Shown here piece by piece: positions 2,598-64,000 of a stretch of DNA of 64,000 nt. Every line of letters begins with the position of its first letter. The first letter of the stretch is position 1. A program made the translations under genes and the position numbers. The notes under the pieces are model-generated. The model was not told the DNA's origin. It worked only from the letters and a program-made list of their open reading frames with translations, and made no database searches. Source of the DNA: Escherichia coli (GTDB taxonomy: Bacteria > Pseudomonadota > Gammaproteobacteria > Enterobacterales > Enterobacteriaceae); NCBI RefSeq assembly GCF_003334785.1, contig NZ_QOWV01000012.1; one strand, 5' to 3'.

Positions 2598-5705
<3,108 letters not shown>

Positions 5706-61414: not shown

Positions 61415-61415
<1 letters not shown>

Positions 61416-62278
61416 CACAAATACAGCGCCGGAAATATCAACCGGCCCACCCCGCGCACCTTTAATGCATCAGCCAACGGCTCAACGTCTTCCGGCGTGG
61501 CGCTCGCCCAGCTTTGCGCCTCGCCATACACGCCGTGGGCATGAAACGCGTTCAGGCGTACCGGAACATCGCCAAGTCCCTTGATAAACGCCGCCAGTTC
61601 TTCGATGTGTTGCAAATAATCCACCTGGCCAGGGATTACCAGCAAACGCAGTTCCGCCAGCTTGCCGCGCTCTGCCAGCAAACAGATGCTGCGCTTAATC
61701 TGCTGATTATCGCGTCCGGTTAATTGTTGATGACATTCGCTACCCCATGCTTTGAGATCGAGCATTGCGCCGTCACACACCGGGAGTAATTTTTCCCAGC
61801 CGGTTTCGCTCAACATGCCGTTACTGTCCACCAGACAGGTGAGATGGCGCAGTTGCGGATCGTTTTTGATAGCAGTAAACAGCGCCACTACAAACGGCAG
61901 TTGGGTCGTGGCTTCGCCGCCGCTTACCGTTATCCCTTCAATAAACAGCACCGCTTTGCGGACATGGCTAAGCACTTCGTCCACGCTCATGGATTGCGCC
62001 ATCGGCGTGGCATGTTGCGGACACCTCTTCAGGCAGGTATCACACTGCTCGCAGACCGCAGCGTTCCACACCACTTTGCCGTCAACAATCTGCAACGCCT
62101 GATGCGGACACTGTGGCACGCACTCTCCGCAATGATTACAGCGCCCCATCGTCCACGGATTGTGACAGTTTTTGCAGCGCAGATTGCAGCCCTGCAAAAA
62201 CAGAGCCAGACGACTGCCTGGCCCGTCAACGCAGGAGAAGGGGATAATCTTACTGACTAAAGCGCATCTGCTGTTCAT
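61415..62278 (-). CDS. yjjW: Glycyl-radical enzyme activating protein (radical SAM) YjjW
   Basis: 287 aa with Cys-rich radical-SAM/ferredoxin-like motifs ([30 protein letters not shown]). Confidence 0.85.
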
Positions 62279-63800
62279 GGCTTATCACGCGCGGCTGGCG
62301 TTCCAGAATACGAGTGTTGCGTGCGGCTTCTTCGCCCAGCCAGGTGGTGTTGGTGCGTGAACCTTCGGCGCGATATTTTTCTAAATCCGACAAACGCACC
62401 ATATAACCGGTAACGCGAACCAGATCGTTACCGCTGACATTGGCGGTAAATTCACGCATTCCGGCTTTAAAGGCACCGAGGCAAAGCTGTACCAGCGCCT
62501 GCGGATTACGTTTGATGGTTTCGTCGAGCGTCAGAATGTCGCTGATGCCGGAATAATAATAAGCATGATGCGGGGCGACAGTTTGCAGATGGGTGATCGG
62601 ATCTGGCTCATCGCCATAGGGTAAACGCGCGCCCGGCGTGGTGCCGATATCGGAACTGATCCCCGACTGTGCGTGTAACATGGCGCGTTTTTGCCAGCCA
62701 TATTTCACGGGGGTATTGGCGACAAACTCCGCCAGTTGCGCGCTGATGCGATAACCCACTTCATTTGCGGCGGCTTCTTTACCGTAGCGCGCGGCAATCC
62801 CTTCTTTCTCACACAGCAAGTTAACCGCTTCCGCCAGCCCATACATGCCAAACATTGGCACAAAACGTTCAGGGTTAATCAGCCCTTCTTTCACCAGGAA
62901 GCTATTCTCAAAGAAGTGTGATTGTTGATAGAGGAATTCACACCGCGCATCGATGATGGCGATCTGCTGCTGGCAGTAGTGCGGTAGAGTGCGCGTAAAG
63001 AAGTCATCCAGCGATTCGCTGCGCTCGGCAATGGCTTTCAGGTTAAGGCGTACCAGCGTGCTGCCACCACCCGCCAGCGGCAGTGAGTTGTAACAGCTCA
63101 CAATCCCGTAGCCCCCTTTTGTGAAAATTTTATCATGCACCGGACCGTTGGCGATGTGCGGTTTGCTACATTCACAGATGTTCTTCGCCACTTCCAGCAG
63201 TAGGTCATCAGGGGTGATTTCAGGATCGTAGATAAAGGTCAGGTTCGGTGAAACCTGCTTCAACTCTGCGTCTGCACGTAAGATTGCACGGGTAATGGGC
63301 GAATCAGACGGGCCGATATTGGCGTGCATAAAGGCGTCTGGCAGGGTTCTGTCGAGGTAACGCCAGAAACGTTTTATTCGAATATCGATCTCGTCTTGTG
63401 TTAGAATTCTAACATACGGTTGCAACAACGCATCCAGTTGCCCCAGGTAGACCGGCATCGATGTGACCGACGGTACGTGGTGGTAAAGAATGGTCAGCAG
63501 AGAGAGTGCGTCATCAAGATCTTTCGCGCCTTCCAGCTCCAGCCATTCGGAACCGTTCGCCAGAAAACGGGCGTAATCGGGTAAGACATAGCGCGGTTTG
63601 TACGGCGCATGACCTTCAAACATATCGCAGATTACACCCTCATCCAGCGCACGGCGGGCTTCGGCAGGCAGCTGCGGATAAGGCAGATTGTTTTCTGCTT
63701 CAAGTGCCAGAAAATGGCGCTTCTGCTCCGGGCTAAGCACTGGGCTGGTGACAATTTGCTGGCAACGTTGTTGCAGTGCATTTTCATCAGAAGTGGGCAT
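62250..63800 (-). CDS. yjjI: Glycyl-radical-enzyme-like protein YjjI (DUF3029)
   Basis: 516 aa, [45 protein letters not shown]; 29-nt overlap with the yjjW start. Confidence 0.85.
63399..63414. promoter_or_regulatory. Perfect DeoR-operator palindrome TGTTAGAATTCTAACA (probably a distal deo operator) inside yjjI
   Basis: 16-bp perfect palindrome identical to the DeoR operator consensus; the deo operon begins just beyond the window end and is known to use operators extending into yjjI. Confidence 0.5.
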
Positions 63801-64000
63801 CTTCTTTTCCTTTTATGCCGAAGGTGATGCGCCATTGTAAGAAGTTTCGTGATGTTCACTTTGATCCTGATGCGTTTGCCACCACTGACGCATTCATTTG
63901 AAAGTGAATTATTTGAACCAGATCGCATTACAGTGATGCAAACTTGTAAGTAGATTTCCTTAATTGTGATGTATATCGAAGTGTGTTGCGGAGTAGATGT

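Follow-up and report, generated by a model that had tools for sequence, protein, structure and literature searches.

A perfect DeoR palindrome within the yjjI coding sequence of Escherichia coli corresponds to the deoO1 operator of the neighboring deoCABD operon

Results

Identification of the palindrome within yjjI as deoO1

The perfect 16-bp palindrome that is embedded in yjjI on the 64-kb stretch of E. coli chromosomal DNA analyzed here (hereafter the window) very likely represents deoO1 (we put the probability at about 0.95), i.e. the DeoR operator at deoP1, which is the upstream member of the tandem promoters of the deoCABD operon for nucleoside catabolism. The original prediction, made from the sequence alone, had proposed a DeoR operator in yjjI and had left open whether it is OE or O1; the operator itself was confirmed, and the choice could be settled in favor of O1, with OE being a separate site. 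The coordinates of the relevant features are compiled in Table 1.

Table 1 Features of the yjjI-deoC region in window coordinates.
Feature	Position	Strand	Description	Basis or remark
deoO1	63399-63414	.	Perfect 16-bp DeoR operator palindrome TGTTAGAATTCTAACA	Sequence, uniqueness, spacing, conservation
Putative extended -10 of deoP1	63399-63407	+	TGnTAGAAT, left half of O1	Read from sequence
deoOE candidate	63120-63135	.	TGTGAAAATTTTATCA, 12/16 to consensus, yjjI codons 222-227 (His/Asn-Asp-Lys-Ile-Phe-Thr)	
deoO2, first 3 bases	63998-64000	.	TGT, start of TGTTAGAATACTAACA, at promoter deoP2	Equivalent in identical strain: 63998-64013
CRP site of deoP2	63965-63980	+	TGTGATGTATATCGAA, yjjI-deoC intergenic region; surroundings of the O1-O2 loop	Among the CRP ChIP-seq motifs of PMC4287617, assigned to yjjI/deoC
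yjjI CDS	62250-63800	-	YjjI-family glycyl-radical enzyme, 516 aa; hosts O1, P1 and OE	ORF and RefSeq annotation

TGTTAGAATTCTAACA is the only perfect palindrome of at least 16 bp in the window and also the sole match to the 16-mer at up to three mismatches, with 0.10 matches being expected from shuffled sequences, and the arithmetic expectation for a perfect match amounts to about 1.5e-5 per 64 kb. The palindrome is centered on an EcoRI site. DeoR palindromes have been given as TGTTAGAA-TACTAACA or TGTTAGAA-TTCTAACA (PMC5326754), and TGTTAGAATTCTAACA agrees with the latter at all 16 of 16 positions; the predicted consensus palindrome held to the exact letters and coordinates. Its offset into yjjI is 386-401 nt, corresponding to CDS nt 387-402, which matches the proposed location about 400 bp inside a gene whose start codon (ATG) lies at 63800. 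On the minus strand, the site codes for the third base of Tyr129 and for Val130-Arg131-Ile132-Leu133-Thr134 of YjjI.

The yjjI ORF agrees with the RefSeq annotation of a strain that is identical to the window over positions 62900-64000, and of 5426 complete E. coli genomes, 5424 contain this stretch at an identity of at least 95%, always under yjjI. Both in K-12 MG1655 and in the identical strain, yjjW and yjjI (minus strand) are followed by deoC-deoA-deoB-deoD (plus strand), and the intergenic region between yjjI and deoC comprises 257 bp. The deo operon had been expected to begin just past the window end, and indeed deoC starts 58 bp beyond it. The homologues of YjjI are PF11230 proteins, and yjjI is a ChIP target of FNR (PMC3688515).

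Two side observations concern the annotation of this region. The stop of yjjI and the start of yjjW (61415-62278, minus strand) overlap by 29 nt at 62250-62278; the overlap of the two reading frames accounts for the fourth most conserved island of yjjI (62260-62275). In addition, a database protein of 574 aa (P0004), which is encoded on a 2.9-kb contig, combines a PF11230 (YjjI) and a PF01791 (DeoC) domain; this fusion is most likely an artefact of gene calling or assembly across the divergent gene pair.

Partner operators of O1

When 11 kb of K-12 MG1655 around deo were scanned for matches to the palindrome with up to four mismatches, exactly three sites were obtained, i.e. the perfect site, TGTGAAAATTTTATCA (4 mismatches) 279 bp upstream of O1, and TGTTAGAATACTAACA (1 mismatch) 599 bp downstream of O1 and 44 bp before the ATG of deoC (in the K-12 record L001, O1 is located at 4665, O2 at 5264 and the deoC ATG at 5324; O1 corresponds to K-12 coordinates 4,616,664-4,616,679). 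According to the literature, a single DeoR loop locks deoP1 and deoP2, which are separated by 599 bp (PMC3334521); O1 and O2, at the tandem promoters, are spaced by about 600 bp, with OE another ~300 bp upstream (PMC8053113). The alignment with K-12, which had been suggested as a check, thus matched the known operator geometry. Given the distance of 599 bp to O2 and the weaker match that lies 279 bp upstream, we conclude that the palindrome represents O1 rather than the distal OE. The latter has reportedly been placed 279 bp upstream of O1; for this figure as well as for the labels O1, O2 and OE, we follow secondary citations.

The window strain and K-12 share an identical 16-mer, identical spacings (279 and 599 bp) and the same location with respect to deoC, and we found no difference between the two deo systems; some other E. 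coli lineages, however, carry single-base variants of O1. The partner operator that had been expected past position 64000 was found as well: 13 of the 16 bases of O2 lie beyond the window end, and O2 was placed via the strain that is identical over 62900-64000.

In the 64-kb window, only O1 itself matches better than TGTGAAAATTTTATCA, which lies exactly 279 bp upstream of O1. About 2.4 sites with four mismatches are expected per 64 kb (arithmetic), and the sequence match alone is therefore no better than chance; OE is called because of its exact position and its conservation. The idea that a distal operator lies inside the upstream gene was thus correct with respect to OE, but incomplete, since P1 and O1 are located inside the yjjI CDS as well.

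The deoP1 promoter and the looping mechanism

O1 and O2 probably each overlap the -10 region of their promoter, P1 and P2, respectively, and TGTTAGAAT forms the left half of both O1 and O2/P2. From the position of this element we infer the exact -10 assignment and a transcript start of P1 at about 63414-63416, with transcription directed toward deoC. The P1 leader would then be about 640 nt long and run antisense to yjjI codons 1-129 over its first ~386 nt. A scan of positions 63000-64000 for consensus -35/-10 promoters did not call deoP1, because its -35 region is weak; this region is poor and differs from species to species. Extended -10 promoters do not depend on a good -35 element. One of the deoCABD promoters has been located "in an upstream gene, yjjI" (PMC6389913), so that the deo promoter inside yjjI has already been remarked on in print.

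A further conserved element, CGCCAGAAACGTTTTA at 63361-63376, is the second most conserved 16-mer of yjjI, includes the palindrome AAACGTTT and spans about -54 to -39 relative to the putative P1 start. It may have an UP-element-like role at P1. As a candidate UP element or other site it was nevertheless set aside, since it is largely conserved also in Proteus, where no deo operon is nearby; its conservation is thus mostly explained by the codons for KRFWR.

Since the left half of O1 would double as the extended -10 of P1 (TGTTAGAAT), DeoR bound to O1 is expected to occlude RNA polymerase at this promoter. A single DeoR multimer would hold O1, O2 (599 bp downstream) and OE (279 bp upstream), whereby the DNA would loop and both promoters would be locked until deoxyribose-5-phosphate releases DeoR. 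With P1, O1 and OE lying inside the divergent yjjI, selection on the operators freezes the synonymous positions of residues 129-134 and 222-227. DeoR binding, looping and inducer release at O1 are known from the literature: DeoR is a 6- to 8-mer (PMC4217526) with deoxyribose-5-phosphate as its inducer (PMC5326754); loops between all deo sites have been seen by electron microscopy, and O1-O2 looping in vivo has been estimated at about 72% (PMC8053113). Moreover, DeoR ChIP-qPCR has been applied to the deoC promoter (PMC5326754) and a loopometer has been used with deoO1/O2 (PMC8053113). To this, the present analysis contributes the sequence, the geometry, the conservation and the coupling to deoC adjacency. 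Regarding helical phasing of O1 and O2, spacings of 567-675 bp across species revealed no obvious 10.5-bp periodicity.

O1 alleles within E. coli

Allele counts were obtained by megablast with a 32-mer centered on O1, which resolved 5086 of the 5424 genomes. The exact 32-mer with the perfect O1 is present in 4494 genomes, and 167 more carry a variant in the flank only. Alignment of the low-identity 32-mer matches revealed two further O1 alleles. The allele C11A (TGTTAGAATTATAACA; window position 63409, O1 position 11), which leads to the substitution R131I in YjjI, is present in 326 genomes and belongs to the O157:H7 lineage; in strain 140, one of the genomes with this allele, yjjI carries a frameshift annotation. 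The allele G6T (TGTTATAATTCTAACA; window position 63404, O1 position 6), which leads to L133I, was found in 99 genomes, including BW25113 (NZ_CP009273.1, 4606473-4606504) with Keio and evolved derivatives, C600/EC600/CV601 and about ten unrelated natural isolates. G6T turns the -10 element of deoP1 into the consensus TATAAT, removes the EcoRI site and breaks the symmetry of the operator; MG1655 carries the perfect palindrome. G6T is either a recurrent mutation or an old polymorphism.

Conservation of the operators within yjjI across species

A scan with YjjI, in which each GTDB species was represented by one genome, resulted in 80 loci. In all of these, deoC is divergently adjacent to yjjI, with the exception of four Proteus species and of two loci that are too short upstream to tell. 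The codon alignment was based on 77 non-Proteus sequences from Enterobacterales, i.e. the window and 76 loci, the two short ones included. O1 is located at CDS nt 387-402 without any mismatch in 55 of the 77 sequences and with one or two mismatches in the remaining 22. For OE, 65 of the 77 sequences are identical, and this site represents the most conserved 16-mer of the whole yjjI CDS. At the deoC-adjacent loci, an O2-like site is always present before deoC, and the spacing between O1 and O2 is 567-675 bp, mostly 596-603 bp.

The third codon positions display the constraint most clearly. Their mean entropy in yjjI is 1.15 bits across the 77 sequences, and summed over windows of six codons, the O1 codons 129-134 show the lowest value of the entire gene (0.27 bits versus a median of 7.12), followed by the OE codons 222-227 with the second-lowest value (0.66 bits). 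Of the third positions in yjjI, only 5% are near-invariant, and the sole run of four of them comprises codons 131-134. The variation within O1 is confined to plus-strand positions 10-13, except for two Edwardsiella sequences, and the TGTTAGAAT half stays intact, being the left half of O1 in 75 of the 77 sequences. Residue 131 of YjjI is R, K, G or I while the DNA keeps at most two mismatches to the operator; from this we conclude that the DNA site rather than protein function is conserved.

The four Proteus species, in which deoC is not nearby, deviate from O1 at 6-8 positions and from OE at 11-12, and their YjjI proteins read V-G-[ENS]-L-T and D-A-V-F-G at the two sites. In more remote YjjI proteins (Providencia, Moellerella and others), variation affects exactly those residues that are encoded by O1 and OE, and homologues without a neighboring deoC carry VG[ENSKAD]L[TS] or IGQQT at the residues encoded by O1. 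On the basis of the protein alone, we predicted that P0117 (VGILT, DKIFT) lies beside deoC and has the sites, and that P0116 from Moellerella (IGQQT/AGAFDE) has neither. As predicted, the P0117 locus, whose YjjI is 66% identical, harbors adjacent deoC-deoA-deoB genes and sites at -225, +387 and +666, and the Moellerella locus revealed no deoC and no site with up to four mismatches in 7.5 kb. Operator retention is thus coupled to an adjacent deoC, with the sites being absent in Proteus and Moellerella.

The expectation that a regulatory site inside a coding region constrains both protein sequence and regulation is supported by these frozen synonymous positions and by the losses where deoC is not adjacent. 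As judged from the alignments, the operators in yjjI dictate both synonymous codons and amino acids (YjjI residues 130-134 and 223-227).

In Hafnia and Edwardsiella (L073, L074, L076 and L078), the yjjI-deoC intergenic region is enlarged to about 460 bp versus about 260 bp elsewhere, and the best O2-like site is located about 184-218 bp from deoC versus about 45 bp. O1 and OE are found at unchanged CDS positions in these genomes, and the O1-O2 spacing is 626-675 bp.

Alternative explanations for the palindrome

The location of the palindrome inside the upstream gene, a plausible place for a distal operator, could suggest that it is OE, i.e. a promoter-less auxiliary operator, rather than O1. 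Such an OE should be the most upstream site, imperfect and located about 878 bp from O2; the palindrome, however, is the middle and the perfect one of the three sites, and it lies 599 bp from the deoC-proximal operator. The further, weaker site 279 bp upstream yields a layout that agrees with the published O1, and the palindrome carries the TGnTAGAAT extended -10, as does O2/P2, which makes an assignment as OE very improbable. We consider it even less probable that the palindrome has no regulatory role and arose as a side effect of encoding Val-Arg-Ile-Leu-Thr or as a chance palindrome centered on an EcoRI site. Such an origin would be compatible with a position wholly inside an expressed and conserved ORF, but not with synonymous positions that are frozen at the site, unlike elsewhere in yjjI, nor with the fact that YjjI homologues without a neighboring deoC do not keep the encoded residues. 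The exchange among R, K, G and I at residue 131, with the DNA remaining within two mismatches of the operator, and letters that are identical to the DeoR consensus equally argue against it and for O1.

A role that would be compatible with, and additional to, the function of O1 in deo regulation is that the DeoR sites and P1 couple the expression of yjjI-yjjW to the supply of deoxynucleosides, which we regard as rather unlikely. The coupling could be mediated by a DeoR roadblock at O1/OE, by an O1-O2 loop that encloses the yjjI promoter, or by antisense transcription from P1, which upon derepression would proceed through the first ~386 nt of yjjI and its promoter. Consistent with such a role, O1 and OE lie in transcribed yjjI, the region between O1 and O2 contains the yjjI promoter, and P1 is oriented head-on toward yjjI; yjjI is a real, FNR-bound target, and yjjI-yjjW are recurrently found beside deoCABD, a nupC-like transporter (15 loci) and the TatD-like yjjV. 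O1 and OE also keep their CDS position where the intergenic region is about 460 bp long, but this is expected, as insertions or deletions would disrupt the CDS. Furthermore, we found no link between DeoR and yjjI in the literature searched, and deo regulation alone fully explains the conservation of the sites. Control of the FNR-activated yjjI-yjjW pair, encoding an orphan glycyl-radical enzyme and its activase, by DeoR and P1 thus remains a speculative addition to the assignment of the palindrome as deoO1.

With respect to the gene neighborhood, the nupC-like nucleoside transporter gene flanks yjjI-yjjW at 5410-6687 in L083, at 1647-2921 in L085 and in 13 other loci, one of which is the Moellerella locus, where deoC is not adjacent. 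The repeated occurrence of YjjI among genes for nucleoside and DNA catabolism is a possible functional hint.

CRP ChIP-seq in ETEC H10407 revealed an intragenic peak in yjjI 544 bp upstream of the CRP peak at deoP2 (PMC4287617). In the window, the intragenic peak corresponds to about 63429, which is 22 bp from the center of O1, and the motif assigned to it (CGTACCGTCGGTCACA, opposite strand, 63462-63477) lies 41 bp from the peak and makes a poor CRP site. This peak might originate from cross-linking via the DeoR O1-O2 loop rather than from direct binding of CRP.

Discussion

The deo operator system was worked out by Valentin-Hansen, Dandanell, Hammer and Amouyal between 1982 and 1989, and deoO1/O2/OE is the textbook DNA-looping system of the 1980s. 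The detection of the palindrome is therefore correct and already known, and of little weight, because the deo looping system has long been described. What is added here is modest, i.e. a quantitative demonstration of the dual constraint and the strain-specific O1 alleles. The assignment as O1 is nonetheless unambiguous, and OE and O2 are now placed in window coordinates.

Operators that are embedded in an ORF and form loops with an operator near the promoter, at a distance of a few hundred bp, also include lac O2 in lacZ and gal OI in galE. These, however, lie in sense orientation in the first gene of the operon they regulate, whereas O1 and OE of deo are located in a different, divergent gene. 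In addition, lac O2 and gal OI are auxiliary operators, which deo O1 is not, since it has its own promoter and an entire promoter-operator unit is placed antisense in a foreign ORF. The promoters of nupG and tsx share the repressor DeoR and the palindrome family with deo (PMC5326754, citing Bremer 1990 and Munch-Petersen 1990), but represent different loci outside of this window, in whose 64 kb there is no second site with up to three mismatches.

For common laboratory strains, the G6T allele could imply a raised basal deo expression or shifted deo baselines in BW25113/Keio and C600 compared with MG1655. If the additional control of yjjI-yjjW were real, it would, together with the gene neighborhood, suggest that YjjI functions in the anaerobic metabolism of nucleosides or deoxyribose. 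Our results clearly show that a promoter-operator unit can be maintained long-term inside a foreign coding sequence, where it dictates codons and residues, and that this coupling is gone where deo is not adjacent.
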